Shown here one piece after another: positions 10,049 to 29,992 of a stretch of 64,000 nt of DNA. This DNA is from a candidate division WOR-3 bacterium (lineage in GTDB: Bacteria > Hydrothermota > UBA3073 > JACQXS01 > JAGMCI01): the NCBI GenBank assembly GCA_023129325.1, contig JAGMCI010000011.1, positions 45,549 to 109,548 of the forward strand, in the 5' to 3' direction. The translations under genes were made by a program, and so were the position numbers. Position 1 is the first letter of the stretch, and each line of letters begins with the position of its first letter. The notes beneath the pieces were generated by a model that saw only the letters and a list, made by a program, of their open reading frames with translations, had not been told where the DNA came from and made no database searches.

Positions 10049-10076
10049 ATTTTACTATAAAAAACACATTTGTCAA
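10049..10076 (-). promoter_or_regulatory. Sigma70-type promoter (Pc-like position) driving the four-gene cassette
   Basis: TTGACA-N16-TAAAAT immediately upstream of the GTT core. Confidence 0.6.
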
Positions 10077-10177
10077 GAAATAATTTAACACGAACAAGAC
10101 ACGAACAAAAACCAATCTCAATATCCGTATGGACAAAACACGAACTTACTCACAAAAATTTTTACAAAGAAAAATGG

Positions 10178-10252
10178 TTCGCCCCGTTTCCATACGGAAC
10201 GGGGTTCGTGTGCTGTTCGCCCCGCACCGAGATTTCTCTGGTGCGGGGTTCG
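10178..10252. mobile_element. Two CCCCG...CGGGG mini-elements, each with a TTCG target duplication, inside CACGAAC/GTTCGTG repeats
   Basis: TTCG-CCCCGTTTCCATACGGAACGGGG-TTCG (10182-10204) and TTCG-CCCCGCACCGAGATTTCTCTGGTGCGGGG-TTCG (10220-10248). Confidence 0.8.
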
Positions 10253-10359
10253 TAAATGTTCGTGCTGAGTTCGTGTTAAAACCTGTTTAATTTAATCTGT
10301 GGCTATTTCTCTCTGTGTGCTCTGTGAACTCTGTGGTTGCAACTTTGTGTGCTTTGTGG

Positions 10360-11424
<1,065 letters not shown>

Positions 11425-11540
11425 TTAATTTTACATTAAAAGATTAAAAAATCAAGATTATTCTATATAATAATTATCAAATTCTCAAAGAATTAGATGG
11501 AAATAATAGGAAAATAAGTTTTTAATTGACAAGATTTTTC

Positions 11541-11569
11541 TTGACAAGAGGCTTTTTTTAAGATATAAT
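11541..11569 (+). promoter_or_regulatory. Sigma70-type promoter of the fabH-oxidoreductase operon
   Basis: TTGACA-N17-TATAAT, 12 nt before ATG, no SD. Confidence 0.7.
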
Positions 11570-11581
11570 TAAATTCAGACA

Positions 11582-12562
11582 ATGAGGAAATTGAAAATTA
11601 TTGGCACTGGCTCCTATGTCCCCCCAAAAGTTCTCACGAACTTTGATTTAGAAAAGATGGTAGATACTTCAGACGAGTGGATAAGGGGACGCACTGGAGT
11701 CAAGGAGAGGCATATTGTTGAAGGCAACACAGCAACATCTGACTTAGCAGTTGAAGCTGCTAAAGATGCACTTTCTGATGCTGGTCTTAAGGCTCAAGAC
11801 CTTGATGTCATAATAATAGCCACTGCCACTCCAGACACAGCTTATCCCTCCACTGCCTGCTGGACTCAGAAGGGGCTTGGCATAAAAGATATACCTGTTT
11901 TTGATATAGGAGCTGCTTGTTCTGGCTTCCTTTATGGGTTTGAAGTAGCTGCCAGTCTGATAGCGACAGGTAAATATAATAATATTTTAGTCTCAGGTGC
12001 TGAAGTAATGTCTAAAGTTGTGGATTGGGAAGACAGGAACACTTGTGTTTTATTTGGTGACGGAGCAGGTGCCTGTATTGTAGCTGCGACTGATGGCGAC
12101 AGTGGTATTCTTGCTTCTTATTTAGGGGCAGATGGGACAATTGGCCACCTCTTGGTCCAGCCAGCTGGTGGCACCCGGATGCCTGCTTCTCATGAGACAG
12201 TTGATAAGAAGCTGCATACAGTACATATGCAAGGTCGTGAAGTATTCAAATATGCTGTGAGGACAATGGGGGGTTCAGTAGCCAAAGTCCTAAAGGAGGC
12301 AAATCTAACAGCCGAAGACATAGCCCTTTATGTTCCTCATCAAGCCAATCTTCGCATTGTTGAAGCCACTTGCAGGAGGGTAAATATGCCAATGTCCAAG
12401 ACTTCAGTGATAATTGACAAATATGGCAATGTTCCTGCTTCTTCAATTCCATTGGCGCTTGATGCGGCAAACAAGAAAGGGAAGATAAAATCTGGAGATT
12501 TAGTTCTTTTTTCTGCATTTGGTGCTGGTTTTACATGGGGGGCAATGATATTTAAATGGTAA
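11582..12562 (+). CDS. fabH: Beta-ketoacyl-ACP synthase III
   Basis: DTSDEWI, AACSGF (Cys), LFGDGAGA, HQAN, YGN, FGAGFTWG. Confidence 0.95.
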   Translation: MRKLKIIGTGSYVPPKVLTNFDLEKMVDTSDEWIRGRTGVKERHIVEGNTATSDLAVEAAKDALSDAGLKAQDLDVIIIATATPDTAYPSTACWTQKGLGIKDIPVFDIGAACSGFLYGFEVAASLIATGKYNNILVSGAEVMSKVVDWEDRNTCVLFGDGAGACIVAATDGDSGILASYLGADGTIGHLLVQPAGGTRMPASHETVDKKLHTVHMQGREVFKYAVRTMGGSVAKVLKEANLTAEDIALYVPHQANLRIVEATCRRVNMPMSKTSVIIDKYGNVPASSIPLALDAANKKGKIKSGDLVLFSAFGAGFTWGAMIFKW

Positions 12563-12793
12563 ATGGAAGAAACAATAACTAAGCTTAAAGCAAAAATAAA
12601 GATTATTGAGACACTTTGTAAAGGATGTGGCTATTGTATTGATGCCTGTCCTAAGAAGATTTTGGAGATGGCTTCTTATTCTAATCAAAGCGGCTATCAT
12701 CCAGCTCGTTGTATTAAACCCGAGGATTGCATAGGCTGCGCCTTATGCTATCAAGTCTGCCCAGAAATAGCGATAGAAGTTGAGAAGTTATGA
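12563..12793 (+). CDS. 2[4Fe-4S] ferredoxin (delta subunit of 2-oxoacid:ferredoxin oxidoreductase)
   Basis: CKGCGYCIDACP and CIGCALCYQVCP. Confidence 0.9.
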   Translation: MEETITKLKAKIKIIETLCKGCGYCIDACPKKILEMASYSNQSGYHPARCIKPEDCIGCALCYQVCPEIAIEVEKL

Positions 12794-13905
12794 AGAACAT
12801 GGAAAAATATAAGATGGGTGAGAAGGTGTTAATGAAGGGTAATGAGGCACTTGCAGAGGGTGCCGTTAGGGCGGGTTGCAGGTTTTTTGCTGGCTATCCG
12901 ATTACACCACAAAATGAGATTCCAGAGTATCTATCTTGGCGTATCTTTGAAGTCGGTGGCACTTTCATACAATCTGAATCTGAGATTGCTGCTATCAATA
13001 TGATATTTGGCGTAGCGGCTTGTGGTGTTAGGGGGATGACATCCTCATCTGGCTGTGGCATAAGTTTAAAGCAAGAAGGCATCTCGTATATAGCTTCAGC
13101 AGAGCTGCCGTTCTTTTATGCAAACATAATCCGTGGTGGTCCGGGACTTGGCAATATTGCCCCAGCTCAAAGTGACTACTTTCAGGCAACTCGTGGTGGT
13201 GGGCATGGCGATTATCGGGTGATTGTTTTGGCGCCAAATTCGGTGACTGAGATGGGTAATTTCCCAAAGTTAGCTTACGACTTGGCAGATAAGTATAGGA
13301 ATCCGTGCATGGTACTTGCTGATGGATTGCTGGGGCAAATGATGGAGCCAATGGAATTTAACTTTGACTGGGTTGACCCAGATAAACTCCCGCCAAAGGA
13401 CTATATTGTGACAGGTTGTAAAGGTAGACCAAGGAGGATTATAAATACGCTTCATATGATACCAAGTATCCTTGAAAAGCACAACTGGCATTTGTATGAA
13501 AAATATCAAAGAATAGAAGAAAATGAAGTGCGGTTTGAGGGGTGCAACTTAGAAGATGCTGAAATTGTCATCGTAGCATATGGGACTTCAGCCCGTATTT
13601 CAACTGAAGCTGTGATAAAAGGTAGAAAAAAGGGTATAAAAGTTGGGCTCTTTAGGCCGATAACTTTATGGCCCTTTCCGAAGAAGGCTATTAATGAGCT
13701 TGCTGATAGAGTCAAGAAGCTTTTGGTAGTAGAAATGAATATGGGACAAATGGTTGAGGATGTGGAGATAGCTGTTTCTGGTAAATCTGCTATTCATTTC
13801 CTGGGTCGCCCTGGAGGTAGCTTACCAACAGGAGATGAAGTATTAGATAAAGTAGAAGAAATATTAAGCAAACCTGCTTCGCCGGAGCGAGAGCGAGGCA
13901 AGTAA
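12790..13905 (+). CDS. vorB: 2-oxoacid:ferredoxin oxidoreductase alpha subunit (VorB type)
   Basis: MKGNEALAEG, GYPITPQ, ESEIAA, RGGPGLG, VVEMNMGQM. Confidence 0.85.
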   Translation: MKNMEKYKMGEKVLMKGNEALAEGAVRAGCRFFAGYPITPQNEIPEYLSWRIFEVGGTFIQSESEIAAINMIFGVAACGVRGMTSSSGCGISLKQEGISYIASAELPFFYANIIRGGPGLGNIAPAQSDYFQATRGGGHGDYRVIVLAPNSVTEMGNFPKLAYDLADKYRNPCMVLADGLLGQMMEPMEFNFDWVDPDKLPPKDYIVTGCKGRPRRIINTLHMIPSILEKHNWHLYEKYQRIEENEVRFEGCNLEDAEIVIVAYGTSARISTEAVIKGRKKGIKVGLFRPITLWPFPKKAINELADRVKKLLVVEMNMGQMVEDVEIAVSGKSAIHFLGRPGGSLPTGDEVLDKVEEILSKPASPERERGK

Positions 13906-13906
13906 A

Positions 13907-14653
13907 ATGGGAAGAATTTACAAAAAGCCAGTGAGTATGACCAAGATTGCGATGCGTTACTGCCCTGGTTGTGGACACAGTATTGCTCATCGTTTAATTG
14001 CAGAAGTAATTGATGAGCTTGATATAAGGGAGCGTGCGGTTGGTATTGCGCCTGTGGGATGTTCTGTGTTCCTTGATGAGTATATGGACTGTGATATGAT
14101 ACAAGTTCCACATGGCAGGGGTTGTGCATCTGCCACAGGTATGAAGAGGGTGCGTCCAGATTTAATTGTCTTCTCATATCAGGGCGATGGTGATTTAGCT
14201 GCTATTGGGACAGCTGAGACCATTCATGCAGCCACTCGGTCAGAAAACTTTACGGTCATCTTTATTAACAACGCCATCTATGGCATGACTGGTGGTCAGC
14301 AGGCGCCAACGACGATGCCAGGACAGAAGACGACAACCAATCCTTATGGCAGGGAGGTCAAGGTTCACGGGTATCCCATAAAAGTCTGTGAGATGCTGTC
14401 TGCTCTGGATGGACCTATATATCTGGAGAGAGTCGCTGTAAATAATGTTCCCAATGTTCTGAAAGCGAAGCGTGCCATTAAGAAGGCATTCCAAATTCAG
14501 CTTGATGGACTTGGATTTACATTAGTAGAGATTCTTTCACCGTGTCCTACAGGCTGGGGTGTAATTCCTAAGAAAGCTTGTGAATATGTGGACGAGAAGA
14601 TGAGCAAATATTATCCATTGGGTGTATACAAGGATTTGACCAAAAAGAAATGA
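13907..14653 (+). CDS. 2-oxoacid:ferredoxin oxidoreductase beta subunit (TPP-binding)
   Basis: YCPGCGH, GDGDLAAIG, NNAIYGMTGGQ, SPCPTGW. Confidence 0.9.
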   Translation: MGRIYKKPVSMTKIAMRYCPGCGHSIAHRLIAEVIDELDIRERAVGIAPVGCSVFLDEYMDCDMIQVPHGRGCASATGMKRVRPDLIVFSYQGDGDLAAIGTAETIHAATRSENFTVIFINNAIYGMTGGQQAPTTMPGQKTTTNPYGREVKVHGYPIKVCEMLSALDGPIYLERVAVNNVPNVLKAKRAIKKAFQIQLDGLGFTLVEILSPCPTGWGVIPKKACEYVDEKMSKYYPLGVYKDLTKKK

Positions 14654-15189
14654 GACAAGAGGTAATCATAGCTGGTTTTGGTGGTCAGGGAGTTATCAAG
14701 GCTGGTGTATTACTGGCAACTTCGGCTATGAATGAGGGTAAGCATTGCACACACTTTCCATCCTATGGGGCTGAAATGAGAGGCGGTACAGCTAACTGCT
14801 CAGTGATTATTTCCACTGACGAAATTGCTTCTCCTGTGGTTACTGAGCCAGATACAGTTATTGCTATGAACGAGCCTTCCCTTGACAAGTTTGAGCCCAG
14901 GCTGAAGAAAGGGGGATTGCTTATATACAATTCGTCACTTATCTCAAGGAAACCAAAAAGAAATGATATTGAAGTTCTTGCCGTGCCAGCCAATGAGATA
15001 GCAGAAAAACTTGGGACTGTAAAGTGTGCCAATATGGCTGTTGTAGGAGCATACATATCTAAAACAAAAGCTATTGCCCTTGAGAGTATAAAGTCATCAC
15101 TCCCTACGGTCTTCTATAAACTAAAGCAAGATTTCATCAACATAAATAAAAACGCCCTTGATAAAGGCTCCACATATGCACAGAAGTAG
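14650..15189 (+). CDS. 2-oxoacid:ferredoxin oxidoreductase gamma subunit
   Basis: AGFGGQGV, PSYGAEMRGG. Confidence 0.9.
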   Translation: MRQEVIIAGFGGQGVIKAGVLLATSAMNEGKHCTHFPSYGAEMRGGTANCSVIISTDEIASPVVTEPDTVIAMNEPSLDKFEPRLKKGGLLIYNSSLISRKPKRNDIEVLAVPANEIAEKLGTVKCANMAVVGAYISKTKAIALESIKSSLPTVFYKLKQDFININKNALDKGSTYAQK

Positions 15190-15402
15190 CTAATTTTCAA
15201 CTCTGCCTGTCGGATATTTCGCTCTAAAATCCATCAGTATCTTACCTCCAGTGTGGCTCTGAGCCACTACTCATTATATTTTATAAAGCATATTGCAAGA
15301 AAAAAACTTGACAAATTTAATTTAGCTATTAAAATAAATAACTAAAGGGAAAAGATGATTTTGGTTTTTGATATTTAATCTTTGATATTTGATTTTATTT
15401 AT

Positions 15403-15475
15403 GGGGGTGTAGCTCAGTTGGGAGAGCGTCTGGCTGGCAGCCAGAAGGTCAGGGGTTCGACCCCCCTCACCTCCA
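15403..15475 (+). tRNA. tRNA-Ala (GGC)
   Basis: Cloverleaf: acceptor GGGGGTG/CACCTCC with G3:U70, anticodon loop CT-GGC-AG, T loop TTCGACC; CCA not encoded; TTGACA-N16-TAAAAT at 15308-15335. Confidence 0.95.
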
Positions 15476-15495
15476 TAATTAACAGGAGGAGAGAA

Positions 15496-16890
15496 ATGAA
15501 AGGAATGATTATGGGAAGCAAAAGATTATTAAGCTTTTTGTTGCTTGGATGCTTGGTTTTTGGCTTGTTTGTAAGTATAGGTTGTAAGAGTAAAGGTGGA
15601 TATCAGGATATTGCTCTTGTTAAGCAGGCGACAAGAGAAATCAGGAGAATAAGAAATGCACTTGAAGAATATAAATTGGATTATAGTTATTATCCATCCG
15701 AAGGAAGTGATTTAAAGGTTAGACTTGCTTCTTATTTATCCAAGTTCTCCTATCATGAGGACAAGATAGTGCGTGAGTATTCAGGAACTGTTCTCTCTGC
15801 GCAAAACACTCTTGACCAAATAATTAACATACTTTCTGGATGCGGGAGGATAAAAAATGAGCAAATTGAAGACAGATTTGCTAAGGTTCAGGAGAATCTT
15901 GAGCTTTACAAAGAAGAGCTTGAAGGAATTTCACATAAAATTCCATCAATAGTTGAAGATGTTAAAAAGATACAATCAGTTATTAATGACTTGAATCCTG
16001 AGAAATCAAAATCTTTAAAACAAGATTCTCTTATTAGTCTTGGAGATAGGATTGTAACTACTGTAGATTCACTGATTAAGGAGGTAACTGGCGAAGAGAA
16101 AACTCACTTACAAAATATAGGGAGTACTTTTGGTTGGTATAAGTTAAAGCTTCTTGGCAAGGAGCCCAAAAAGCCACCTGAGCTTTATTCTCCGGAGGGG
16201 GAGATTACCACTTTGAAAGGAGTAAGCAAAGATACTATATCTCTGTCCGAGGAATGGCAAATGGGAATACTTGAGCTTGAAGGGATGATAGAAAATTATC
16301 GGCAAATTGAGTCTTCAATAAATTATTGTGATTTCCTTATAGGAACTCAAAAAGATATTAACCGTGCCTTAAAACTTATTTCAAGTTTTCAAGAAAAGAG
16401 AGAGAAAGCTAAAAAGGCAGCTGTGATTGTGGAAGCACAAGCGAAGTTGTATCGTATGGCTGATGTTTTAAGAGATTATAGAAGAAAGAATTTAACATTC
16501 CCTGAACCAAATGTAAATACAGACTCCCTTTTTCATCCTTATTTTATAGAGACAACGATGAGTGGTGAGCAAATAGACCGCTGGGAAGCTACTTTATCTT
16601 GGTTTTCGTCCAGTCCAGTGTATAAGACTAAAGACCCAACTACAAGTTTTATGCTTGAGGCAAAAGTCAATAATAAAGAGCGCACTTCTCTCGCCTGTTG
16701 GGTTCAGGTTGAAAATCAGTGGGGCAAGATATTAAGTTCTTTTTCAAGTCCATTGATTTATACCACTCCGGATTCTCTTCGGACTTATTTTATAAAAGCA
16801 AGAGCAAAAGACAGTGGCAAAACTTGGATAACAGACCGTCCACCAATTGCCAAGACCCGTCTGCCGTCTGTCGGGCAGAAAGGAGGCTAA
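15496..16890 (+). CDS. Lipoprotein with two GspG/pilin-like segments
   Basis: SD AGGAGG then ATG 15496 (the ORF-track start overlaps the tRNA); lipobox SIGC; IRNALEEYKLDYSYYP and MADVLRDYRRKNLTFP. Confidence 0.6.
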   Translation: MKGMIMGSKRLLSFLLLGCLVFGLFVSIGCKSKGGYQDIALVKQATREIRRIRNALEEYKLDYSYYPSEGSDLKVRLASYLSKFSYHEDKIVREYSGTVLSAQNTLDQIINILSGCGRIKNEQIEDRFAKVQENLELYKEELEGISHKIPSIVEDVKKIQSVINDLNPEKSKSLKQDSLISLGDRIVTTVDSLIKEVTGEEKTHLQNIGSTFGWYKLKLLGKEPKKPPELYSPEGEITTLKGVSKDTISLSEEWQMGILELEGMIENYRQIESSINYCDFLIGTQKDINRALKLISSFQEKREKAKKAAVIVEAQAKLYRMADVLRDYRRKNLTFPEPNVNTDSLFHPYFIETTMSGEQIDRWEATLSWFSSSPVYKTKDPTTSFMLEAKVNNKERTSLACWVQVENQWGKILSSFSSPLIYTTPDSLRTYFIKARAKDSGKTWITDRPPIAKTRLPSVGQKGG

Positions 16891-18063
16891 ATGAGTAAAT
16901 CCTTATATCTTACCCGCCTGCTATTCGTCGGGCAGGTATCTGTTTTGTGTCTTATAATTAGTTGTGCACCACCACCCGGATTAGAGGAGAAACCAGAGGG
17001 CTCAAATGCCCAATTTAGCGAATCCAAAAAGCACTATAGTTTTTGTCGAGAGTATCTTAAAAATAAGATGTGGGATGATGCAATTAAGAATTGCGAACTT
17101 GCTGTTCAGGAAAGCACCTCTTATGTTGATGCTTATGTGGGACTTGGATTAGCTTATCGGGGAAAAAGGGAATATAATAAAATGGAAGAGACCTATGTTA
17201 AAATGATAGAAATTGCTCCACTTAAAGGTCATTATGCTTTAGGGCAACTTTATACTGAAGAAAGGAAATATGAAAAAGCTTTATCCCGTTATAAAGAAGC
17301 TCTGAAAGTAGATACAAGTTATGCTGATGCTTGGTATGGTATAGGGTATGTTTATGAAAAAAGAGGCGACCTCTCGACTGCTATTAAGAATTACAAACAT
17401 GCTTTAAAACTTGACCCTGAGAGTGAGAATATAAGATATAGTCTTGGAAAAGCATATATAGAGAGTGGAGAACATGAAAAGGGCATAGCCGAACTTAAAA
17501 TTTTAATTGCTACTTATCCAGAAGACTTGGATATCAGAGCCGCACTTGGAAAAGCTTATTTGTCCTTAAAAGATTATAATAAAGCCAAACAGGAATTTAG
17601 TTATATCATCCAGCAATCTCTAACTGATGTTACAAATAGGCTGAATTTTGGCATAACATGTGAGGGATTAAAGGATTATGAATCTGCTGTCCATATATAT
17701 AAAGAAGCCATTTCTATAGATACGACAAACATTTCTTCGTATTGTCATTTGATAAACCTTTACATAAAGTTGAAGGACCCGGCTAAAGCTCTTAAATATC
17801 TGAATAAAGCTCGCCAAATAAATCCGAAGAGCCAAATCCTTTACTGTCTTTTTGGAGATATTCATATTTTAAGCGGAGATAAGCTATTCAATAAAAAGGA
17901 ATTTGATGCCTCTATATCAAAATATAATAAAGCAATCAAAGAGTATAAGCTTGCTATTCAAGGGGAAGAAGCTGAATGGGTCTCTTATGCCCAAAAGGCT
18001 ATAAAAATGGCAAAGGCTAAAATTAAAAATGCAGAAGAAGAAGCCTTCTGGCACCGTAAATAA
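16891..18063 (+). CDS. TPR-repeat lipoprotein
   Basis: Lipobox IISC; many AYxxLGxxY TPR units. Confidence 0.85.
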   Translation: MSKSLYLTRLLFVGQVSVLCLIISCAPPPGLEEKPEGSNAQFSESKKHYSFCREYLKNKMWDDAIKNCELAVQESTSYVDAYVGLGLAYRGKREYNKMEETYVKMIEIAPLKGHYALGQLYTEERKYEKALSRYKEALKVDTSYADAWYGIGYVYEKRGDLSTAIKNYKHALKLDPESENIRYSLGKAYIESGEHEKGIAELKILIATYPEDLDIRAALGKAYLSLKDYNKAKQEFSYIIQQSLTDVTNRLNFGITCEGLKDYESAVHIYKEAISIDTTNISSYCHLINLYIKLKDPAKALKYLNKARQINPKSQILYCLFGDIHILSGDKLFNKKEFDASISKYNKAIKEYKLAIQGEEAEWVSYAQKAIKMAKAKIKNAEEEAFWHRK

Positions 18064-18556
18064 AGCGTGTCTTGTTTTAAACCAGAACTATGAACCTCTT
18101 TCAATAACTCGTGTTAAGAGAGCTTTTTGCCTTATTTATCTCGGGAAGGCTGAAGTAGTTGAGCCTTACTCTTTTAAAATTCACTCCATCTCTACCTCTT
18201 TTGTTGCTCCATCGGTTTTAAGATTGCTCTATTTTATTCATGTAAAAAGGCCAAGCCTTCCACTCACCAAACGCAATATTTTAAAACGCGATAATTATAC
18301 CTGTCAGTATTGTGGCGCCCAGAATGTTTCTATGACCACAGACCATATAATCCCTAAAAAACTTGGTGGTGAGGATAGCTGGGAAAATATGGTCTGTGCC
18401 TGTGTTAGATGTAATAATAAAAAAGGAGACAGCACTCTGGAAAAAGCAGGGCTGAAACTAATCAAGCGTCCCAAAAAGCCACATTTCTTTTTTATCATCC
18501 ATAATTTGGTGACAATCCCTGACACCAGATGGAGACAATACCTGTTTATAGATTAA
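18029..18556 (+). CDS. HNH endonuclease (McrA-like)
   Basis: LVLNQNYEPL, RDNYTCQYCG, DHIIPKKLGG, WENMVCACVRCNNKKG. Confidence 0.9.
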   Translation: MQKKKPSGTVNKACLVLNQNYEPLSITRVKRAFCLIYLGKAEVVEPYSFKIHSISTSFVAPSVLRLLYFIHVKRPSLPLTKRNILKRDNYTCQYCGAQNVSMTTDHIIPKKLGGEDSWENMVCACVRCNNKKGDSTLEKAGLKLIKRPKKPHFFFIIHNLVTIPDTRWRQYLFID

Positions 18557-18572
18557 TAGAAGTTTTTTACAC

Positions 18573-18656
18573 ATTGTAGGCACAAATTCAATTTGTGCAA
18601 GCACGATTTTCATGCCCGAGGCAGATTCGCCTTTGGCGAAAAATCGTGCCTACAAT
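18573..18656. repeat. Composite GTAG-type REP doublet with an internal TTCGCCTTTGGCGAA palindrome
   Basis: ATTGTAGGCAC...GCACGATTTT...AAAATCGTGCCTACAAT. Confidence 0.7.
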
Positions 18657-18671
18657 TGATTTCACATGTAA

Positions 18672-20330
18672 ATGGGAATTCTTCTGATTATTCTGATTTT
18701 AAGTGCTCCTATTATAGTCGGGAATAAGTATTTCTCTTCTAAACTTATTTCAAAGACTTTAAAAGAAAAAAATCCTGAACATCTGCTTGATTTATACAAG
18801 ACCAACGGCTTTCTTAAAGTAAAAATTAAGGTTATAGGAGATACAATTTTAATTGAAGAAGGACCTCAATTTAGAATTGGAAGTATAAAACTTAAAGGTA
18901 ATAAAATATTTAGAGACCAAGATATTTTACACCTGTTAAAAACTCAATCAAATGAAGTTTTCAATGAAGTTGACTTTAAAAATGATATGGAAACAATTTT
19001 AACAAAATATGAAAATGTAGGTTATCCATATTGTAAAATAAAACCTTTTGACTTTGAACTTAAGGCTGATTCTGCCCGCCGTCAGGTAGGCGTCGGGCAG
19101 GTGAATTTTGGACTTGAAATTATTGAGGGACCTCTTGTAAGGATAAGTGGTATCAAAGTCCAGGGTAATAAAGTGACAAAAGATTATGTGATTTCAAGGG
19201 AGTTAAGAATTAAACAAGGCGATATTTTCAGTGAACATAGCCTTAAGGAAGCTGAGCTCAGGCTTCGTAAACTTAGGTTTCTTGAGTCTGGGGAAATAGA
19301 CCTTGTTGAGATGCCCGCCTACCCCGCTCCGACCCCGTTTCGATGGAATCGGGATTCTTTCGGAACAAGCGAAACGGGACGGAGTCGGCAAGGCAGGAAT
19401 GAACTTGAAGTCAAGGTAAAAGAAGGACTTATGAATCGTGTTGATGGAATTATTGGCTACAGGAACCGTGAATTTATTGGACTGATTGACCTTGAGCTTC
19501 TTAATCTTTTTGGAACTGGAAGAGCCATTAAGGTTAGCTGGCAGAAGCTAAGCAAACTTTCAACTTTCTTTGAACTTGGATATGAAGAACCCTGGCTATT
19601 TGGCTCTCCAATTAATCTTGTTATCAATGGGACACACAGAGTAGAAGACACAGTTTATATCAAGAATACAGCTGAAATTTTATTTAAAGCCCCAATCACT
19701 TTATCCTTTATGATAAATGGTGGTTTATGTGGCAACTGGATAGAAAGTAGCGCAGGGGTTTATCCCCCGCATCATAGAGAGGAAGAATATAGAGGGGTAT
19801 TGGGAATTGATTTTGATACTTATGGAAAATCAAGTATTCATTATAAAGTGAAGACTGAATATGATACTAATGGATTAGAAAGGATGATACTTAATCTTAA
19901 TAATTATTTATCTGTTCCTCCTTCTCACTCAGGCGGGCAGGTCTTTTTATCTCTCAATTGGCAACAAATATTTCGCAAAGAAGTTCCTGAATATGAGTTC
20001 TTTAAACTCGGCGGTTCACGAACACTTCGTGGTTATTGGGAAGAAGAGTTCCAAGGAGCTAAAGTTGGCTGGTTGAATCTTGAATACAGACGATTTGTTG
20101 GGGGTGGGTCTTACTTCTTTCCATTTTACGACATTGGTTACATATCTTGCCTGCCTGCCCGACATCTGGCAGGCGGGTCGGCAGACAGGGATGGTGATAT
20201 AAAACAAGGTTTTGGATTAGGGGTTGCTCTGAATTCACCCATAGGCGTAATTACTCTCGCTTATGGACTTGTAAAAGGAGTCAGTTTTATGGAAGGCAAA
20301 ATCCACCTCTCAATCTCCTCACGCTTCTGA
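18672..20330 (+). CDS. BamA/TamA-family outer-membrane protein (POTRA + beta barrel)
   Basis: POTRA motifs GNKVTKDYVISREL and YENVGYP; NLFGTGR; LGGSRTLRGY; C-terminal Phe; at least 5 in-frame repeat inserts. Confidence 0.85.
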   Translation: MGILLIILILSAPIIVGNKYFSSKLISKTLKEKNPEHLLDLYKTNGFLKVKIKVIGDTILIEEGPQFRIGSIKLKGNKIFRDQDILHLLKTQSNEVFNEVDFKNDMETILTKYENVGYPYCKIKPFDFELKADSARRQVGVGQVNFGLEIIEGPLVRISGIKVQGNKVTKDYVISRELRIKQGDIFSEHSLKEAELRLRKLRFLESGEIDLVEMPAYPAPTPFRWNRDSFGTSETGRSRQGRNELEVKVKEGLMNRVDGIIGYRNREFIGLIDLELLNLFGTGRAIKVSWQKLSKLSTFFELGYEEPWLFGSPINLVINGTHRVEDTVYIKNTAEILFKAPITLSFMINGGLCGNWIESSAGVYPPHHREEEYRGVLGIDFDTYGKSSIHYKVKTEYDTNGLERMILNLNNYLSVPPSHSGGQVFLSLNWQQIFRKEVPEYEFFKLGGSRTLRGYWEEEFQGAKVGWLNLEYRRFVGGGSYFFPFYDIGYISCLPARHLAGGSADRDGDIKQGFGLGVALNSPIGVITLAYGLVKGVSFMEGKIHLSISSRF

Positions 20331-20381
20331 TATCTTTAGCAATTATACTACTTTCTCCACAATTCTGTAAATCTGCAGTTA

Positions 20382-20407
20382 CCCCGCACTTATGCATAAG
20401 TGCGGGG
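20382..20407. repeat. Perfect 26-bp palindrome CCCCGCACTTATGCATAAGTGCGGGG; supplies the Mrp stop codon and may act as a terminator between convergent genes
   Basis: Direct reading; same core at 39063-39086. Confidence 0.8.
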
Positions 20408-21250
20408 CTGAATATTGTCACGAATTTTGGCTACTATTTCTTTAAATGCCTTGCTCGCCGACGAATCAGGGAAATTTTTAATAAATAAAGTACCACTATC
20501 AGAAGTCTCTACAATATTAACATCAATTGGAATTCTACCCAGAAAGGGGACATTGAGTTCTTTGGCAGATTTTTCTCCTCCACCGACCTTAAAAAGATTT
20601 ATCTCCTTTTTACAATATGGACATATAAAACCACTCATATTCTCCACAATGCCAAGGATAGGTATCTTGAGCTGTCTCAGGAAATTAACACACTTTCTTG
20701 AGTCTGAGAGGGCAATAGCTTGGGGGGTAGTAACGATAATGCCACCATTTAATTCTGGTATAAGCTGGCAAATTGATAAAGGCTCATCACCAGTGCCAGG
20801 TGGAGAATCAACTATGAGATAATCAAGTTTTCCCCAGTTTACTTCACCAATAAATTGTTTCAATGCAATCCCTTTTAGTGGACCTCTCCAGATGACCGGC
20901 ACATCAGGACTATTTAGCAATGAAGCCATTGAAAATGCCCATAAATTGGGTTTTACAAGCATAGGGGTTAAGCCCTCAGAAGTTGCTACTGGTTTTTTAC
21001 CCTCAAATCCCATCATTTTTGCTATTGATGGACCATGAATGTCTGCATCCAGTATGCCTATCTTGGCGTTATCCTCACTGAGACAGGCAGCAAGGTTTAC
21101 TGCTACAAAACTTTTGCCAACGCCACCTTTATTGGAAAGAACCAAGAGCTTGTGTTTTATCTTCTCCAAGTTTTTTTGAATCTTGTGGTTCAATTCAGCT
21201 TGCTGTCTTTGCCGTTCCTCGGCAGTATTTTTTTGTTTACTTGTATTCAT
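20390..21250 (-). CDS. Mrp/NBP35 (ApbC) Fe-S cluster carrier ATPase
   Basis: [41 protein letters not shown]; start moved to SD-supported ATG 21250. Confidence 0.9.
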
Positions 21251-22178
21251 AATATCTCCTTCCTCCATAATTATAGGTTTTAATTTTACTCTCTTTTTTA
21301 AGAATTTCAAGATATTTTATTACTTCATTTCTATGTATTCCTAAAGAGTCAGAAATATCGGATAAAGTGACAGGACGTCTTTTGACTAATTCAATAATTC
21401 TATTTTCCATAGCTATAGGGTATGCTTTTTGTAGCTTCTTTTTAAATTCAGGAATGATTTCACAATTTTCACCAAAGGCATTTTTAATTTTTTCCAATTC
21501 AATGGGAGTCAGGGGGGAAATGGATTTCTCAGTTGGAGGACGGATTACTGTATTTAACTGCACTTTATCAAACCCTATTTCTGAAATAATTGACTTAAAA
21601 TGCTCAATCTCTTGAGAAGAAGCATTAATTCCTTTAATAAGCATTATTTCAAGCCATATTTTGCCCTTAAATTCGTGCCTAAAATCCTTTAACCCAAGTA
21701 TAATTTCATCAAAATTAAGCGAAGCGTGTGGACGATTTACAAGATTAAAAGTCTCCAAATCAGCAGCATCCAGTGATGGAATGACTAAATCAGCTGGAAG
21801 CAGCTCTTTTCTCACTGTTCTGTCATATAGCAAAGACCCATTGGTGAGAACTGCAAGAGGTATTTTTGTTAACTTTTTGATACCGAGTATGATTTCTCCA
21901 ATAGCTGAATTAAGGGCTGGTTCACCAGAACCCGAGAGAGTAATATAATCAATTTTTTGGTTCAGAGAAATTGCTTCCTTAACCTGTGGCAGAATGTTGT
22001 CCCTTTTAACATATTCTTTTCTCTCAATAGTTTGGTTAGTCGTCACCCCTAATTGACAGTAAATACAGTCAAATGAACAAGTTTTATAAGGGACAAGGTC
22101 AACACCTAAAGAAAATCCAAGTCTTCTGGATGGAACAGGTCCGTAAATATACTTTTGCATATCCTTAATTTCAGTCAC
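21237..22178 (-). CDS. Radical SAM protein
   Basis: [24 protein letters not shown]. Confidence 0.85.
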
Positions 22179-22744
22179 AGAAAAACAGAGAACTGAAGAC
22201 AGAGAACAGAAGACAAAAATTCTGACTTCTGGCTTCTGACATCTGACTTCTGATTTTTTATTATGTCTTTAATAATTTCTCTGTTACTGGAAAAGGGTAT
22301 AAATGGTAATTTTTCAACTCCTATAAACTTCACTTCTACCGTATCGGTGCCTGGTAGGAGTTTCCCTTTTTCTATCTTCACCTCATAGGCAATAAGCAAC
22401 ACATTCTTGTAAATTTTTGTCTTCTGGCTATATACACCAATCAATCTTAAAATCTTTCCCTTTAAACCAGTTTCCTCTTTTAATTCTCTTAAGCAAGCTT
22501 TTTCTGGAGTCTCATTTATTTCTATAAATCCTGATGGCAAAGCCCATCTTCCTTTATGAGGGCTGACTCCCCTTTTTATTAAAAGGATTTCATTTTTTGA
22601 GTTCTTGACCAATGCTACCACAGAAGGAAGCGGGTTCTCATAATTTATCCAGTTACATTTGGGACACACAAGCCTCTTACGGCCATCCATTTTAAGTGTT
22701 TTAAGTAAATGTTTGCATCTCGGACAATATTTAATATTGGTCAT
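22175..22744 (-). CDS. NUDIX hydrolase with N-terminal zinc ribbon
   Basis: CPRC...CPKC; GFIEINETPEKACLRELKEETG Nudix box; C-terminus encoded by heptamer repeats. Confidence 0.9.
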   Translation of the reverse strand: MTNIKYCPRCKHLLKTLKMDGRKRLVCPKCNWINYENPLPSVVALVKNSKNEILLIKRGVSPHKGRWALPSGFIEINETPEKACLRELKEETGLKGKILRLIGVYSQKTKIYKNVLLIAYEVKIEKGKLLPGTDTVEVKFIGVEKLPFIPFSSNREIIKDIIKNQKSDVRSQKSEFLSSVLCLQFSVFL

Positions 22745-23343
22745 TTTTCATTCTCCTTTATAAATGAAAGGGGAAACACTATGTCACTTGTGCAACAAGG
22801 AATCCAAACTCCAAGAAATAAAAACAAGAAGGTAATGGCAAACAAGGCTAAATTTATTGTCCCACCTAACGCCATAATTATGTGAAACAGTGTTGCCCAG
22901 GTACTTAATAAGACATGTCCGGCATGGGGAAATTTAGTTCTGGGTCTAAAATAAGCAATTGTAATACCCACGAATGCCAAAGGATTCACAAGCCACCATT
23001 TTTCAATAAAACCTATATGGATTCCTCTATTAGGTAAATTAAGTAAAGTTTCACCAAGATAGGGAATTATTGAATCACTTAATGTGGCGATACCAATTGA
23101 CCCAAAATAACCAATTAAGAGCAATCCCCAGAGTTTAGGCTTTTTTTTAATATGAAGTTCATACATAGATGCAGTTACAAGTGCGCTCAGGAGAACATGA
23201 ATTGGATGTAAAATATAAAAAATATTATATGAGACCTTAAAAGGAAGATTACGAAAAACTATCATAATACCAATTCCCGTGAGAGCTCCAAAAGCAGTAA
23301 ATGGAGCGTGACGCTTAAGTTCAATTATTATCTGTTTAAACAT
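22741..23343 (-). CDS. Conserved hypothetical membrane protein (His-containing TM segments)
   Basis: Hydrophobic helices; HAPFT, HPIH, PHAGH, PCCTSDI. Confidence 0.6.
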   Translation of the reverse strand: MFKQIIIELKRHAPFTAFGALTGIGIMIVFRNLPFKVSYNIFYILHPIHVLLSALVTASMYELHIKKKPKLWGLLLIGYFGSIGIATLSDSIIPYLGETLLNLPNRGIHIGFIEKWWLVNPLAFVGITIAYFRPRTKFPHAGHVLLSTWATLFHIIMALGGTINLALFAITFLFLFLGVWIPCCTSDIVFPLSFIKENEK

Positions 23344-23346
23344 TAT

Positions 23347-23712
23347 TTATTCGGTTTTATCCAAGCCATAGCCCTTGCCAAGTCCAGGCTTACATATATT
23401 TTCTCCTCCCTTAAGAGTTCCTTTAACCAATTTATCTATCACCTCATCTATACTGCCGCTAATCCCGATAATAGGTTCAACTCCTTGCTCAGCAAATAAT
23501 CCAGAAGCACGGTGCCCCATACCACCTGCAACAATACAATTTACTCCCATATTGTGTAAAAATTGAGGTAAATACCCTGGGTGATGCCCGGGGTTATCAA
23601 TAGTTTTTTTACTTACTAAATTACCATCTTCAATTTTTACAATGGTAAAAGAAGGACATCTTCCAAAATGTTGGGATACAAAATTACTATCTGTTGAAAT
23701 TGCAATAATCAT
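23347..23712 (-). CDS. NifB/NifX family cofactor-binding protein
   Basis: HFGRCPSF, GGMG. Confidence 0.85.
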   Translation of the reverse strand: MIIAISTDSNFVSQHFGRCPSFTIVKIEDGNLVSKKTIDNPGHHPGYLPQFLHNMGVNCIVAGGMGHRASGLFAEQGVEPIIGISGSIDEVIDKLVKGTLKGGENICKPGLGKGYGLDKTE

Positions 23713-23723
23713 TTTACCTCCTT

Positions 23724-24686
23724 TTAAAATTTTGGTTTTAAAACATTATTTTTAAGATTTTTAAACTTTAACCCTTGAAAAAAATTTCTTCTTGTAAGTT
23801 CTTGTTCAATGCGAGAGACAATTTCGCTTTTTGTAAGATTCCATTTTGGTGCAATTAGCATATCGTCTTCAAGAACCTCACCTACGAGTCGTTGAATAGT
23901 AATATTTGGCGGAAGCAGTTCAATTATATCAGAGACAAGCGGTATATACTCTTCAATAGAAAGAGTTTTGAATTCTTTCTTTTCAAAATCTTTTGCAAGG
24001 TTTGTACTTTTAATTACTTGAAGATGATGGATTTTAATTCCATCTATATCCATTTTTGCTAATGTTTTTACTGTTTCAAGCATATCCTTTTTTGTCTCAT
24101 CAGGCAAACCAAGAATAATGTGAACACAAATAAAGATATTTCTGTTCCGAGTTCTTTTAATTGCATCTTTAAATTGGGCAAAGTTATGTCCACGATTGAT
24201 TCTTAATAGTGTTTTATTATGTATTGATTGCAACCCATACTCAAGCCATACCTGACATTTTTTTGCGTAACTCTCAATAAGGTCAAGCACCTCATCAGGC
24301 ACGCAATCTGGCCTTGTGCCAATACAGAGTCCAACAATATCAGGGTCAAGTAGAGCTTCATCATAAACTTTTTTTAAAAATTTTACATCAGCATAAGTAT
24401 TTGTATAGGGTTGAAAGTAAGCAAGAAATTTTGTGCTTTTTCTCTCAAGTAATTTCTTTCCATATTGTATCTGGTCATAAACACTTGTCTTTGTTCTTCC
24501 TGTCTGCCGATAGGCAAGAAATGTTGGCAAACTAAAACTTTGAGCATTACAGTAAGTACAGCCACTATACCCTAATGTTCCGTCTCTTGTAGGGCAGGTA
24601 AAACCAGCGTCTATAGGTATTTTGTAAACCTTGAATCCAAATTTATCTTTCAAAAACTGACTAAATGAATAATATCTTTGGTTCAT
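23724..24686 (-). CDS. YhcC/TIGR01212-type radical SAM protein
   Basis: DAGFTCPTRDG...GCTYC, YFQPYTNTY, GTRPDC, EYGLQS. Confidence 0.9.
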   Translation of the reverse strand: MNQRYYSFSQFLKDKFGFKVYKIPIDAGFTCPTRDGTLGYSGCTYCNAQSFSLPTFLAYRQTGRTKTSVYDQIQYGKKLLERKSTKFLAYFQPYTNTYADVKFLKKVYDEALLDPDIVGLCIGTRPDCVPDEVLDLIESYAKKCQVWLEYGLQSIHNKTLLRINRGHNFAQFKDAIKRTRNRNIFICVHIILGLPDETKKDMLETVKTLAKMDIDGIKIHHLQVIKSTNLAKDFEKKEFKTLSIEEYIPLVSDIIELLPPNITIQRLVGEVLEDDMLIAPKWNLTKSEIVSRIEQELTRRNFFQGLKFKNLKNNVLKPKF

Positions 24687-24688
24687 TT

Positions 24689-25570
24689 CTAAATATTTAT
24701 TCCTTTTAGCACTATATCGCCATCTTTTAAGCCTATGTCTTTAGCTATTACAGGGCACTTTATTTTTAGGAGGAAAAATATAGGCCGCTTTTCTTCTGAA
24801 AGTGCTTCGTAATTTCCTTGTCCCTTGCTTATGATGAATTTTGCATTATTGTAAACTTTTCTAAACTCTTTATTTGTAGTTTTAAGGACAACACCGGGAG
24901 CATCTGTGCCTGAAGATAAAATGGTTGCAACTTGAGAAAGTCCTGCTTCTACAGCATCCTCGCGAGTTGCATCATTTATTACTGGTTTTTCCCTTACGAC
25001 AAATGTTGTAGGTTTATTCACCCCGCCCTTGTGCACAAGGGCGGGGTTCATTTCTTCTATTAAAATTCTGTCAAATACAGTTTCACCTGCATTATCTCCA
25101 ATGTATAAAATCTCATCAGTAGACGCAAGATGCTCTTTGAACTTATTATAATCACATATTGCAAATTTTTTCTCCTTTTTCAATATTTCATATATTTCTT
25201 TCTCAAGCTCAAACTCTCTATCTGCACCAAAGTCTATGACATTTCCAGCAATGGAAAGTCTTATTGCTGTGAGCAATCTATCTTTTGATTCTTCAATCTC
25301 TTTCTTTAAAAATGGATAAAGTTTTAAAGCTATTTTTGTATATTTTTCTTTTATTTTTTTAAATGGGTCAGGAACACCGAGCATTTCTCTTATTTTTTTA
25401 TATACTAATCTCCCGGTTTCCGGTGGCGAACTATTAAGGGGAATATCTTTTACCATCATTCCAATTTCATCTAATATTTCTTTTATCTTCTTTTCATCAT
25501 TAGTTATTATCCGGGATGCCCAGAGTGCTTGTTTTAAAAAACAAGGGATACAATCAAGATATGTCCTCAT
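24689..25570 (-). CDS. DUF89/ARMT1-like damage-control phosphatase
   Basis: DCIPC, AGNVIDFG, GDNAGETVFD, KGQGNYE; in-frame 30-nt insert NPALVHKGGV. Confidence 0.9.
   Translation of the reverse strand: MRTYLDCIPCFLKQALWASRIITNDEKKIKEILDEIGMMVKDIPLNSSPPETGRLVYKKIREMLGVPDPFKKIKEKYTKIALKLYPFLKKEIEESKDRLLTAIRLSIAGNVIDFGADREFELEKEIYEILKKEKKFAICDYNKFKEHLASTDEILYIGDNAGETVFDRILIEEMNPALVHKGGVNKPTTFVVREKPVINDATREDAVEAGLSQVATILSSGTDAPGVVLKTTNKEFRKVYNNAKFIISKGQGNYEALSEEKRPIFFLLKIKCPVIAKDIGLKDGDIVLKGINI
25017..25050. mobile_element. CCCCG...CGGGG mini-element with TTCA duplication, in frame in the DUF89 gene
   Basis: TTCA-CCCCGCCCTTGTGCACAAGGGCGGGG-TTCA. Confidence 0.85.
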
Positions 25571-26223
25571 TTCCTCTCACCGAATATTAAAGTCCCAATT
25601 CTTACAATATTTGCTCCTTCTTCTATCGCGATTTTGTATGAATTTGTCATCCCCATTGAAAGGTATTTCATCTCTATATTTGGAAGCTTAAGGGTTTTTA
25701 TCTTCTCAAAAACCTTTTTTGTCTCAATAAAATAAGGTCTTGAGTCTTCTGGATTTCCAAATCTTGGGCCCATTGTCATTAAGCCCAAAACCTTTATATG
25801 CGGAAGCTTTGAAATTTCTATTATAAGTTTTTCTGTGTTTTCAGGAAAGACACCAGCTTTCTGAATTTCTTTGCCACTATTCACTTCTACTAAGACAGGC
25901 ATAACCTTATCTAAAGCAGAACATCTCTTATTTATTTCTTCTGCGAGTTTGATAGAATCAATGGTCTCTATCAGAGACACGAACTTTACAAGTTTTCTAA
26001 CTTTGTTTTTTTGAGGATGACCGATAAAATGCCATTTTACCTTATTTCCTATCTCTTTGTATCTATTTTCCATCTCTTGTGCATAGTTATCTCCTACAAT
26101 TTTTATTCCTGCATCAATAGCTTCTAAAATTTCTTTAGTAGTTTTTGTCTTTATTGCTGCCTCTAAGATAATTCCTTCTGGTAGTTTCTTAAGTATAGCC
26201 CTTACATTTTCTCTTATTCCCAT
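25567..26223 (-). CDS. yggS: YggS/PROSC PLP-homeostasis protein
   Basis: WHFIGH.QKNK, GLMTMG, LSMGM, VRIGTLIFG. Confidence 0.9.
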   Translation of the reverse strand: MGIRENVRAILKKLPEGIILEAAIKTKTTKEILEAIDAGIKIVGDNYAQEMENRYKEIGNKVKWHFIGHPQKNKVRKLVKFVSLIETIDSIKLAEEINKRCSALDKVMPVLVEVNSGKEIQKAGVFPENTEKLIIEISKLPHIKVLGLMTMGPRFGNPEDSRPYFIETKKVFEKIKTLKLPNIEMKYLSMGMTNSYKIAIEEGANIVRIGTLIFGERK

Positions 26224-26226
26224 TTT

Positions 26227-27144
26227 TTATCTGTGATTACAAAGTGCTTTTATATTATTCCACATAATTTTTATGATTTTAGAGGCAGCATTTTCAGAAT
26301 ATTCTACTACAGGAACGCCATTTACCAATGCTTCTATAACTATTTTATCAAAAGGTATCTTGCCTATTAGATTGATATTTGACTTTTGGCAATATTCTTC
26401 GATAAATTTTGTATTTTTAAGATTTAAGTCATATTTATTTATGCAAACTACTGTTTTGACACCGAAGTGATTTGTTACTTTTATAATTCTTTCCATATCA
26501 TGAATGCCTGAAAGACTTGGCTCTGTGACAATTAAAGCAAGGTCTGCCCCAGAGAGACTTGCAATTACAGGGCAACCAATACCAGGCGGACCATCAATTA
26601 TGATATAATCCATTCCGCTTGAGGCGGACTCAGTAACGGATATTGCGTTTTGTCTTACTAAAGTTACAAGTCTGCCTGAATTCTCTTCAGCAATTCCTAA
26701 TTTTGCATGAACTAATGCCCCATATTTAGTGTCAGAAATATACCACTCTCCAGATATGTTTTCTCTCATTGTAATTGCATTCTCTGGACATATATACTTA
26801 CAAACTCCACATCCCTCACATGAAATTGTGTCAATTTCCACTATGTCATGCTGAACTTGTTTCAGCATCTCTCGCTTCCGACCCCTGACTTCTGATATTG
26901 CATCAAATCGACATACATTTATACATTTACCGCATTGAGTACATTTTTCTTGATTTATAATTGCTTTCTTGCTTCCCATAAATTGGTGTGTCTCTTTTAC
27001 ATCAGGATGCAAAAGAAGATGAAGGTCAGCCGCATCCACATCACAATCTGCCATTACTTTTTTCTCAGCCAATGCAGCAAAACTCGCAGCAATAACTGTC
27101 TTTCCTGTTCCTCCTTTACCACTAATGATAACAATTTGTTTCAT
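26227..27144 (-). CDS. MinD-like P-loop ATPase with inserted 4Fe-4S ferredoxin domain
   Basis: SGKGGTGKT, DCDVDAADL, CTQCGKC, CEGCGVC, DGPPGIGCP. Confidence 0.9.
   Translation of the reverse strand: MKQIVIISGKGGTGKTVIAASFAALAEKKVMADCDVDAADLHLLLHPDVKETHQFMGSKKAIINQEKCTQCGKCINVCRFDAISEVRGRKREMLKQVQHDIVEIDTISCEGCGVCKYICPENAITMRENISGEWYISDTKYGALVHAKLGIAEENSGRLVTLVRQNAISVTESASSGMDYIIIDGPPGIGCPVIASLSGADLALIVTEPSLSGIHDMERIIKVTNHFGVKTVVCINKYDLNLKNTKFIEEYCQKSNINLIGKIPFDKIVIEALVNGVPVVEYSENAASKIIKIMWNNIKALCNHR
26844..26870 (+). repeat. TGTC-type REP-like palindrome, in frame (REMLKQVQHD)
   Basis: TGTC-ATGCTGAA-CTTGT-TTCAGCAT-CT. Confidence 0.7.
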
Positions 27145-29987: not shown

Positions 29988-29992
29988 TCTTT

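Follow-up and report, generated by a model that had tools for sequence, protein, structure and literature searches.

Short GC-rich hairpin modules nested within one another and within genes of a candidate division WOR-3 bacterium

The stretch of DNA analysed here, referred to throughout as the window, comprises 64,000 nucleotides of a candidate division WOR-3 bacterium and lies on contig C3 of the source assembly G000 (G000:C3:45549-109548). The assembly consists of 57 contigs with a total of 2.02 Mb, has 36% G+C and is 89% complete. Many families of tiny GC-rich imperfect hairpins are found in this AT-rich genome, and three nested structures built from such elements occur in protein-coding genes of the window. 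Composite (a) lies in an Omp85/POTRA gene (18672-20330), where a 24-mer of the family F9 splits a hairpin of the family m20. Composite (b) lies in a SPOR-domain gene (52209-53927, - strand) and consists of one copy of the 30-mer F5 within another. Composite (c) lies in the gene of a surface protein (42917-45073, - strand), where the 23-mer c23 is lodged in a GTAG-tagged repetitive extragenic palindrome (REP). All three structures, which had been picked out in a preliminary description of the window, are present letter for letter. Positions given without a contig are those of the window.

Homogeneous guests have entered diverged hairpins and genes of this genome precisely, at specific positions and without duplication, whereas c23 is a family of its own with 4-nt duplications. 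What is new here are the empty-site statistics obtained within one genome, the fixed insertion points and the contrast in junction type. We consider it very probable that the structures are real nested insertions made by mobile modules.

Three nested structures in protein-coding genes

The features of composite (a), together with the simple copies of its two components in the window, are as follows.

20146-20189: composite (a), CTTGCCTG + 24-mer + TCGGCAGACAGG
20154-20177, + strand: guest F9, loop variant ATCT
20146-20153, + strand: left half of the m20 host, CTTGCCTG^; the joined flanks equal a 20-mer found elsewhere in the genome
20178-20189, + strand: right half of the m20 host, ^TCGGCAGACAGG; the joined flanks equal a 20-mer found elsewhere in the genome
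20145-20189, + strand: in-frame 45-nt insertion, SCLPARHLAGGSADR; boundaries good to ~1-2 nt
42695-42718, - strand: simple F9 with an ATCT loop like that of the guest of (a)
24499-24518, - strand: simple copy of the m20 family in a radical-SAM gene
16856-16879 and 16913-16936, - strand: two more F9 copies (C3:62404 and C3:62461)

The 24-mer differs by one base from the reverse complement of 42695-42718. When it is taken out, the rejoined flanks match a 20-mer at C30:11590 exactly and 24499-24518, read as its reverse complement, with one mismatch, and the joined flanks of 10 + 10 nt are present five times uninterrupted in the genome. Since the lengths of the parts add up exactly (8 + 24 + 12 = 44), nothing is duplicated, and the insertion point is defined to within one G. 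Comparison of the Omp85/POTRA gene with its orthologues reveals an exact insertion of 15 residues that is absent from all eight of them, which represent five related genera, and Pfam Omp85 matches flank the 45-nt insertion on both sides. Subtraction of the 24-mer from the 45 nt leaves 21 nt, so that the outer m20 element adds 21 nt and not the 20 nt assumed in the preliminary description, whose guest and flank matches otherwise hold. This length is the one given by the Omp85 alignment alone; for the radical-SAM gene no orthologue was found at E<=1e-30 in 10 relatives.

A second composite occurs at C26:13163-13186, with a host identical to that of (a) and a guest with the loop variant GAAT, and both the ATCT and the GAAT guest subfamilies are also present as solo copies. 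The different guest loops on identical hosts in these two copies of (a) are suggestive of stepwise insertion rather than conclusive. The Omp85 gene also contains at least four further GC-rich in-frame inserts, of 9, 28, 10 and 3 residues, located at 19071-19104, 19310-19390 and 19926-19943 and absent from the eight orthologues; it is a multiply invaded gene of essential type.

Composite (b) is made up of two copies of the same family.

53582-53641, + strand: composite (b); outer F5 = 53582-53598 + 53629-53641
53599-53628, + strand: guest F5, 0 mismatches to the family consensus

The inner F5 sits between bases 17 and 18 of the outer copy, with no duplication and an unambiguous junction, and its joined flanks occur six times uninterrupted in the genome. 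As the outer copy differs from the consensus at two positions while the inner one equals it, the structure is not a local duplication. Within the SPOR-domain gene it forms a 60-nt insertion of 20 codons, and the corresponding 20 residues are absent from all three orthologues that cover the site; a fourth orthologue lacks a larger stretch there.

Composite (c) is of a different kind, as c23 is bordered by direct repeats.

44392-44446, + strand: GTAG-tagged REP hosting c23
44415-44437, + strand: c23, 23-mer, CCCCGTTTCCGTGCGGAACGGGG, inverted ends of 9-10 nt
44411-44414, + strand: TTCG, left target-site duplication
44438-44441, + strand: TTCG, right target-site duplication
10182-10204 (C3:55730-55752), + strand: second c23 copy in the window, TTCG/TTCG flanks

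Without 27 nt the interrupted REP is 28 nt long, as is the adjacent REP at 44361-44388. The REP and c23 are read in frame in the surface-protein gene, in which the REPs and c23 form an insertion of 27-31 residues that is absent from all six orthologues. A total of eight c23 copies were found in the genome and two more in the 60 relatives searched, with the inverted ends CCCCGTT(T)CC / GGAACGGGG. Direct repeats of 4 nt flank seven of these ten copies, namely five of the eight in the genome (TTCG, TTCG, TTTA, CTCA and TTCA) and both of those in the relatives (TTCA and CTCG), and the consensus of the duplication is YTYR. No pair of c23 ends was found to enclose a gene in the genome. More GTAG REPs are present in frame in the same gene at 44236-44251 and 44361-44388, each of which encodes a ..VGNR.(G/E)LPLQ.. 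peptide.

Empty sites and fixed target positions across the genome

The repeat families were obtained genome-wide by k-mer counting and consensus building. Those that take part in the nesting or served as its control, with two further nested copies in the window, are listed here.

F9: 24-mer, CCTGCCCGAC-NNNN-GGCAGGCGGG; 52 copies at <=4 mismatches, 45 at <=1 mismatch in the 20 fixed bases
m20: 20/21-mer, CTTGCCTGACGGCAGGCAGG and variants; ~35 copies
F5: 30-mer; 32 copies at <=5 mismatches
F6core: 30-mer, CTCCGTCCCGCTTCGCTTGTCGGAGCGGGG; 31 copies
F7: 30-mer, un-nested; 36 copies
F3: 27-28-mer
40002-40031 (C3:85550), + strand: F6core nested in an m20-type host, ...TGG^CAGGCAGG; one of 17 composites
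49392-49415 (C3:94940), + strand: F9 nested in a ~30-nt hairpin, ..GCACATC^CACCTTTGG..

The ends CYYG...CRGG are common to F9, F5, F6core, m20 and F3. The full-length hairpins, when read by eye, place T.G and C.A in opposition a few bases in from the ends, and a DNA folding program leaves those end bases partly unpaired.

In the excision test each guest copy was cut out, its flanks of 10 nt + 10 nt were joined, and the resulting 20-mer was sought uninterrupted elsewhere with <=2 mismatches. The joined flanks recur for 17 of 51 F9 copies, 17 of 32 F5 copies, 22 of 31 F6core copies and 8 of 23 m20 copies. When the same flanks were joined in swapped order the corresponding numbers were 3, 2, 0 and 0, cuts shifted by 4 nt gave 1, 0, 1 and 3, and the un-nested family F7 gave 1 of 36. 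The GC-rich islands make up 2.0% of the genome, over which nesting is enriched 16-35-fold with binomial tails of 1e-8 to 1e-30. Because the rejoined flanks are intact hosts, nothing was lost or gained on insertion, and 4-nt flanking repeats were found at none of the junctions of F9 (0/51), F5 (0/32), F6core (0/31) and m20 (0/23). The preliminary description had taken the nested insertions as empty-site evidence of mobility, and this is borne out by empty sites both in the genome and in the orthologues. It had also claimed two insertion chemistries, which are evident as two types of junction when these zero counts are set against the 7 of 10 for c23; the assignment of the two types to HUH/Y1 and DDE enzymes is not supported.

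The insertion points are fixed for each combination of guest and host. Both 30-mers enter F9 at ...ATGG^CAGGCGGG (7 cases), F6core enters m20 at ..GCCGT^CAGGCAGG (17 cases out of 31 F6core copies) and F5 enters F3 at CCTGCCTCG^CC (3 cases). F9 itself enters a REP at GTAGCCGAACC^CTTYAGGGTTCG, with CTTYAGGG on the right side (3 cases), the ~30-nt hairpin at ..CACATC^CGCCTTTGG.. (~9 cases) and m20 at CTTGCCTG^TCGG (2 cases, the window copy and C26:13163). The REP site has 23 uninterrupted hosts, the ~30-nt hairpin 11 and the m20 variant 5, and DNA folding puts the insertion points in or beside predicted loops. The genome-wide consensus and enrichment analysis that had been proposed as a check thus places the insertion points in other hairpins, at fixed positions and with the enrichment given above, in agreement with the earlier suggestion that hairpins are favoured targets. 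On contig C22, upstream of a Y1 gene (8619-8927), a 21-nt module CCTGTCTCGATGAAAACGGGG is present at the REP position GAACC^CTTTAGGG, which is also that of F9; different guests therefore share one target site.

Hosts and guests differ in their divergence. In the composites of F6core in m20 (n=17) the host arms differ by 0.26 per site and the guests by 0.035, and in those of the 30-mers in F9 (n=7) the values are 0.146 for the host and 0.022 for the guest. The reverse is seen for F9 in the REP (n=3), where the host part is conserved (0.037 against 0.111 for the guest). The divergence of host and guest is thus uncoupled, which does not fit composites as the units that spread.

Many guest copies lie in unique AT-rich coding DNA without any host homology. 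Copies deep inside long open frames, in both orientations, account for 36 of 52 F9, 26 of 31 F6core and 18 of 32 F5. The unit lengths are all multiples of three (24, 30, 30, 21 and 23+4), which fits the survival of frame-preserving insertions in a gene-dense genome. On the 5' side of the F9 copies of this genome A-T-C is preferred, with T at -2 in 0.75 (background 0.32) and C at -1 in 0.45 (background 0.18), and C at -1 is found in 0.75 of 113 F9 copies from other genomes. A role of the F9 loop as a target guide was considered and rejected, as loop and flank share little mutual information and related copies account for it; in almost all F9 loop variants the most frequent 5' word is A-T-C, independent of the loop.

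Distribution and comparison with known repeats

F9 was found in 4 of 201 genomes of the phylum, with 45 copies in the present genome and 8, 3 and 1 in the others. Among the matches listed, it occurs at >113 loci of species-representative genomes, many of them from other phyla. These matches include Scalindua and other Planctomycetota, Desulfobacteraceae, Thermodesulfovibrionia/Nitrospirota, Omnitrophota, Elusimicrobiota, Bacteroidota, Ignavibacteria, a Cloacimonadota metagenome-assembled genome (MAG) and an archaeal MAG, while a few in very GC-rich genomes are probably due to chance. In other genomes too F9 is often nested, including in F9-like hosts at CCTGCCCGCCATC^TGGCAGGCGGG. The F9 copies of two related genera (G001 and G004) lie in conserved genes, and the counterparts of these genes in the present genome align across the excised junction and are without F9. 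The patchy occurrence of F9 in its phylum and its presence in distant phyla of similar habitats, as judged from these sequence matches, argue for horizontal spread, either of the element or of its mover, with lineage-specific bursts. Among 2.9 million viral contigs F9 was found at one locus and F5 at three, which gives no sign of a phage vector. The DNA of the window is best matched, and was possibly sourced, in cold-seep metagenomes, and the runs that contain parts of it are from cold seeps as well.

The small dispersed repeats (SDR) of Nostocaceae, SDR1-8, which Elhai et al. reportedly described in 2008 as dispersed hairpins of 21-27 nt nested in themselves and in other small repeats, appear to be the closest precedent. 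Heptamer arrays are said to accompany them in Nostoc, and to our knowledge they have no transposase assigned to them. F9 with 24 nt and m20 with 20-21 nt fit the SDR length of ~21-27 nt whereas F5 and F6core are longer at 30 nt, and the modules here are likewise nested in themselves or in other repeats at precise positions. The two groups, which are compared by description, differ in that no sequence relation between them is apparent, the host phyla are different, most copies here are in frame inside genes, and the 24-mer is found in many phyla. In the portions of two reports cited here, SDR5 sits between bases 3 and 4 of the highly iterated palindrome HIP1, and SDR-like repeats are reported from Nostocaceae only (PMC4390886, PMC5861425).

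Another resemblance is to the REPs, bacterial interspersed mosaic elements (BIME) and REP doublets forming hairpins (REPIN) associated with REP-associated tyrosine transposases (RAYT). Like the present modules, these are short GC-rich imperfect palindromes of high copy number, some of them inside genes, according to the relevant parts of three papers (PMC2817692, PMC3333891, PMC3116915). The sections used of a further paper describe the GTAG-23 of T. roseum, with REPs inside other small palindromes, as well as REPs that lie within genes or lack a dedicated transposase, and mention the Rickettsia palindromic elements (RPE) too (PMC3733652). The genome studied here does contain true GTAG REPs and RAYT genes, and one REP hosts composite (c), but F9, F5, F6core and m20 have neither the GTAG nor a constant CGTC tag and none of them brackets a RAYT gene. 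The RPE, attributed to Ogata et al. (2000), are said to form the sequence families RPE-1 to RPE-10, to measure ~100-150 bp, to be restricted to one genus and to be translated in frame in protein genes. The modules here are similarly inserted in frame in protein genes and read through, but they measure 20-30 nt, are nested and occur across phyla.

IS200/IS605 insertion sequences (IS) and their gene-less derivatives cause no target duplication, recognise imperfect hairpins and insert 3' of a fixed short word in single-stranded DNA. The modules share with them, as far as the passages cited go, the lack of target duplication and the hairpin shape (PMC6006769). Those elements, however, are much longer and have two different ends, whereas each element here consists entirely of one 20-30-nt hairpin, and A-T-C on the 5' side of F9 is a preference and not a fixed word. 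IS elements that target the loops of REPs with 3-4-bp duplications, such as IS1397, were reportedly treated by Tobes and Pareja in 2006. With the miniature inverted-repeat transposable elements (MITE) moved by DDE enzymes, c23 shares the terminal inverted repeats, the 4-nt target duplication and, in (c), the REP site; it differs in that its 23 nt are little more than the two inverted ends, and no matching transposase or full-length partner was found.

The remaining repeat families of the genome are the following.

Perfect palindromes of 15-18 nt: 78 and 149 copies
Family TCCCGCAC..GTGCGGGA: abundant in the genome
GTAG REPs: several kinds in the genome
Tandem heptamer arrays, CTTCCCACTTCCCAC..., e.g. 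CTTCCCA arrays: among the most frequent GC-rich words genome-wide

A search of the window with Rfam gave a single tRNA as the sole match and recognised none of the hairpin families, and a literature search with the 10-mer arms gave unrelated papers only. At 25684-25687, contigs of two independent cold-seep runs (X2 and X4; depth 2-5) have 12 extra bases, by which the GGAAGCTTAA of the window is turned into a palindrome of the CCGTCAGCTGACGG type. This gain is symmetric about an AGCT centre and is not a simple insertion; a further hairpin family may be polymorphic between strains at this point. At 39108-42578 and 56087-59887 the window encodes two large secreted proteases, the one papain-like (C1) and the other gingipain-like (C25), and both bear FlgD_ig / Por_Secre_tail sorting domains (type IX secretion tails). 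With such tails and a C25 peptidase, the gene content is not cyanobacterial and resembles that of the FCB group.

Candidate enzymes, mechanism and rival explanations

Four Y1 genes are present in the genome, at C36:23050, C18:6562, C56:33585 and C22:8619. The three full-length ones that were tested score 143.9, 95.7 and 113.2 bits with NCBIfam NF047646, REP-associated tyrosine transposase, for which the cut-off is 80. GTAG REPs lie beside three of the four Y1 genes, and the fourth has an untagged palindrome on both sides. A TnpB zinc-ribbon domain was not found in the 89%-complete assembly. The genome has a single transposase gene of the IS110 family (DEDD) at C54:52444-52875, directly adjacent to a GTAG REP; REPs of this type also flank one RAYT gene. 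Three small GIY-YIG genes that stand alone (C56:67836-68036, C18:14751-14960 and C45:19546-19758) lie within or abut an RNA gene, which encodes RNase P RNA in one case and a tRNA in two, and pieces of that gene are duplicated on their other side. A hairpin CCCAGCACATA..TATGTGCTGGG, similar to the family TCCCGCAC..GTGCGGGA, flanks the first of them.

The explanation that we favour is that these gene-less GC-rich imperfect hairpins of 20-30 nt are, or recently were, mobile. They would land in other hairpins, at or beside the loop and at preferred positions specific to each family, and also in AT-rich coding DNA, where the copies that keep the frame would survive and be translated. Composite (a) would then have formed in two steps, with a 21-nt m20 element entering the Omp85 gene and the F9 24-mer subsequently entering the m20 loop, and composite (b) would have formed when an F5 entered the loop edge of an older F5 copy. 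The modules without duplications may move as folded single-stranded DNA, in which case an enzyme supplied in trans would cut them out at the base of the hairpin and join them into the single-stranded DNA of a loop. Single-strand HUH-like chemistry is suggested by the duplication-free junctions, the loop targets, the A-T-C preference 5' of F9 and the four Y1 genes, and we put the chances of a hairpin-directed process of this kind as even for the duplication-free families. RAYT-like Y1 (HUH) transposases would be the best available candidate for the enzyme, albeit a tentative and on balance doubtful one. As for c23, it would insert by a 4-nt staggered cut and would be moved by a DDE-type transposase outside the assembly. 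We lean slightly towards this explanation as a whole, with the single-strand chemistry included and the naming of the enzyme left aside.

Several observations weigh against it. The identical hosts of the two (a) copies are compatible with copying of the whole unit followed by a change of the guest; the four differences between them all fall in 24 of 42 nt, which has a probability of ~0.1 by chance. Strain-level polymorphism of these insertions was not seen. The comparison of four cold-seep runs with 10001-30000 of the window gave no contig that bridges or skips 20146-20189, the independent runs yielding only short low-depth contigs, and speaks neither for nor against. Predicted folding of the DNA hairpins is modest, at -3 to -8 kcal/mol with z-scores of -1.3 to -2.2, and the A-T-C preference is partial and not a fixed word. 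With regard to the enzyme, none of the four Y1 genes is flanked by F9, F5 or m20, and no gene in the genome is bracketed by these modules, the 33 neighbouring pairs inspected enclosing ordinary genes. In five distant F9-rich genomes F9 occurs in 3 of 30 Y1 loci (88 kb) and does not bracket the Y1 gene. Y1 genes are found in 24 of 31 relatives as opposed to F9 in 4 of 201 genomes of the phylum, among which the 31 are apparently included. F9, F5, F6core and m20 also lack the GTAG tag, which RAYTs need according to the part drawn on of PMC3733652. The preliminary description had called for the Y1 and DDE enzymes of the genome to be identified, and while the former turned out to be RAYT-like in the three genes tested, none of five Pfam families (DDE_Tnp_1, rve, DDE_Tnp_1_2, DDE_Tnp_4 and DDE_5) was found in the 89%-complete assembly. 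Insertion sequences are often missing from such assemblies.

The simplest alternative, a chance resemblance of low-complexity GC-rich words without any insertion, draws on the fact that the arms are built from repeated 4-5-mers (CCTG/CCCG, CAGG/CGGG) among which partial matches are easy. Its probability is practically negligible, since controls of the same composition gave 0-3 matches against 17-22, with binomial tails of 1e-8 to 1e-30, and since the composites are exact codon-multiple insertions relative to the orthologues. It might instead be supposed that the composites are the propagating units and the simple forms their deletion derivatives, which the preliminary description had named as the contrary case. 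F6core is indeed commonest when nested in m20 (17 of 31 copies) and (a) is present twice with identical host halves. The 17 composites, however, differ by 0.26 per site in the host arms and by 0.035 in the guests, simple F9 with its 52 copies far outnumbers the F9-bearing composites, uninterrupted hosts are common (23, 11 and 5), and the two (a) copies bear different guest subfamilies. Moreover, the exact pattern of composite (a) gave 0 matches in the metagenome contigs of the Joint Genome Institute (JGI), in which a search for close relatives with the C-terminal half of Omp85 gave 177 pattern matches with none confirmed, whereas simple F9 is widespread in species-representative genomes. With host and guest divergence uncoupled and the exact composite not found in those contigs, we regard dominant composites with derived simple forms as very unlikely.

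Templated repair, or 'homing', is another alternative, in which a structure- or sequence-specific single-strand nuclease such as a small GIY-YIG protein nicks hairpins and repair copies a filled hairpin from elsewhere, with the result that guests spread among the copies of a host family. It would agree with the concentration of nesting in host families that are themselves repeated, always at one and the same position, and with the three small stand-alone GIY-YIG genes; small GIY-YIG Ssn nucleases, in the part consulted of one report, cut single-stranded DNA beside dispersed hairpin repeats (PMC11893778). The host arms are nevertheless only 8-12 nt long and ~26% divergent between composites, which is poor homology for templated repair, and the many guests in unique AT-rich coding DNA have no host homology at all. 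The GIY-YIG genes, for their part, are lodged in genes for tRNA and RNase P RNA, where the neighbouring hairpin is of another type, and their proteins matched no NCBIfam family above cut-off, so that we consider homing distinctly improbable. Movement of the modules in trans by an IS110 (DEDD) recombinase guided by a bridge RNA receives even less credence from us. IS110 elements make no long duplications on insertion and often target REPs, and the one gene of this family in the genome does stand beside a GTAG REP. It is present as a single copy, though, the F9 targets are too diverse for one programmed target, and matching guide loops would be required for every one of several unrelated module families.

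Insertion of mobile hairpin modules, our preferred reading, bears on a question posed since at least 2008, namely which agent mobilises those REP-like and SDR-like repeats that lack their own transposase. Nested insertions provide exact before-and-after pairs in one genome that define the ends of the elements to the base, show no duplication and reveal the preferred target positions, and an enzyme assay or a phylogenetic-profile search could be built on these junction data. There is a smaller but serious chance that F9, F5, F6core and m20 form a class of mobile DNAs that ranks among the smallest known and is common to different phyla of anoxic sediment communities, with a catalyst that is neither RAYT nor DDE and is not encoded beside the elements. 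If so, each element would consist of one imperfect hairpin, integrating precisely at the edge of the loop of other hairpins, through an undescribed single-strand cut-and-join enzyme or a route of host replication or repair, and ..ATGG^CAGGCGGG, CTTGCCTG^TCGG and A-T-C^ would be its first target rules. In the organism itself, the modules that lie in frame add loops of 7-28 residues to outer-membrane, cell-division and surface proteins.

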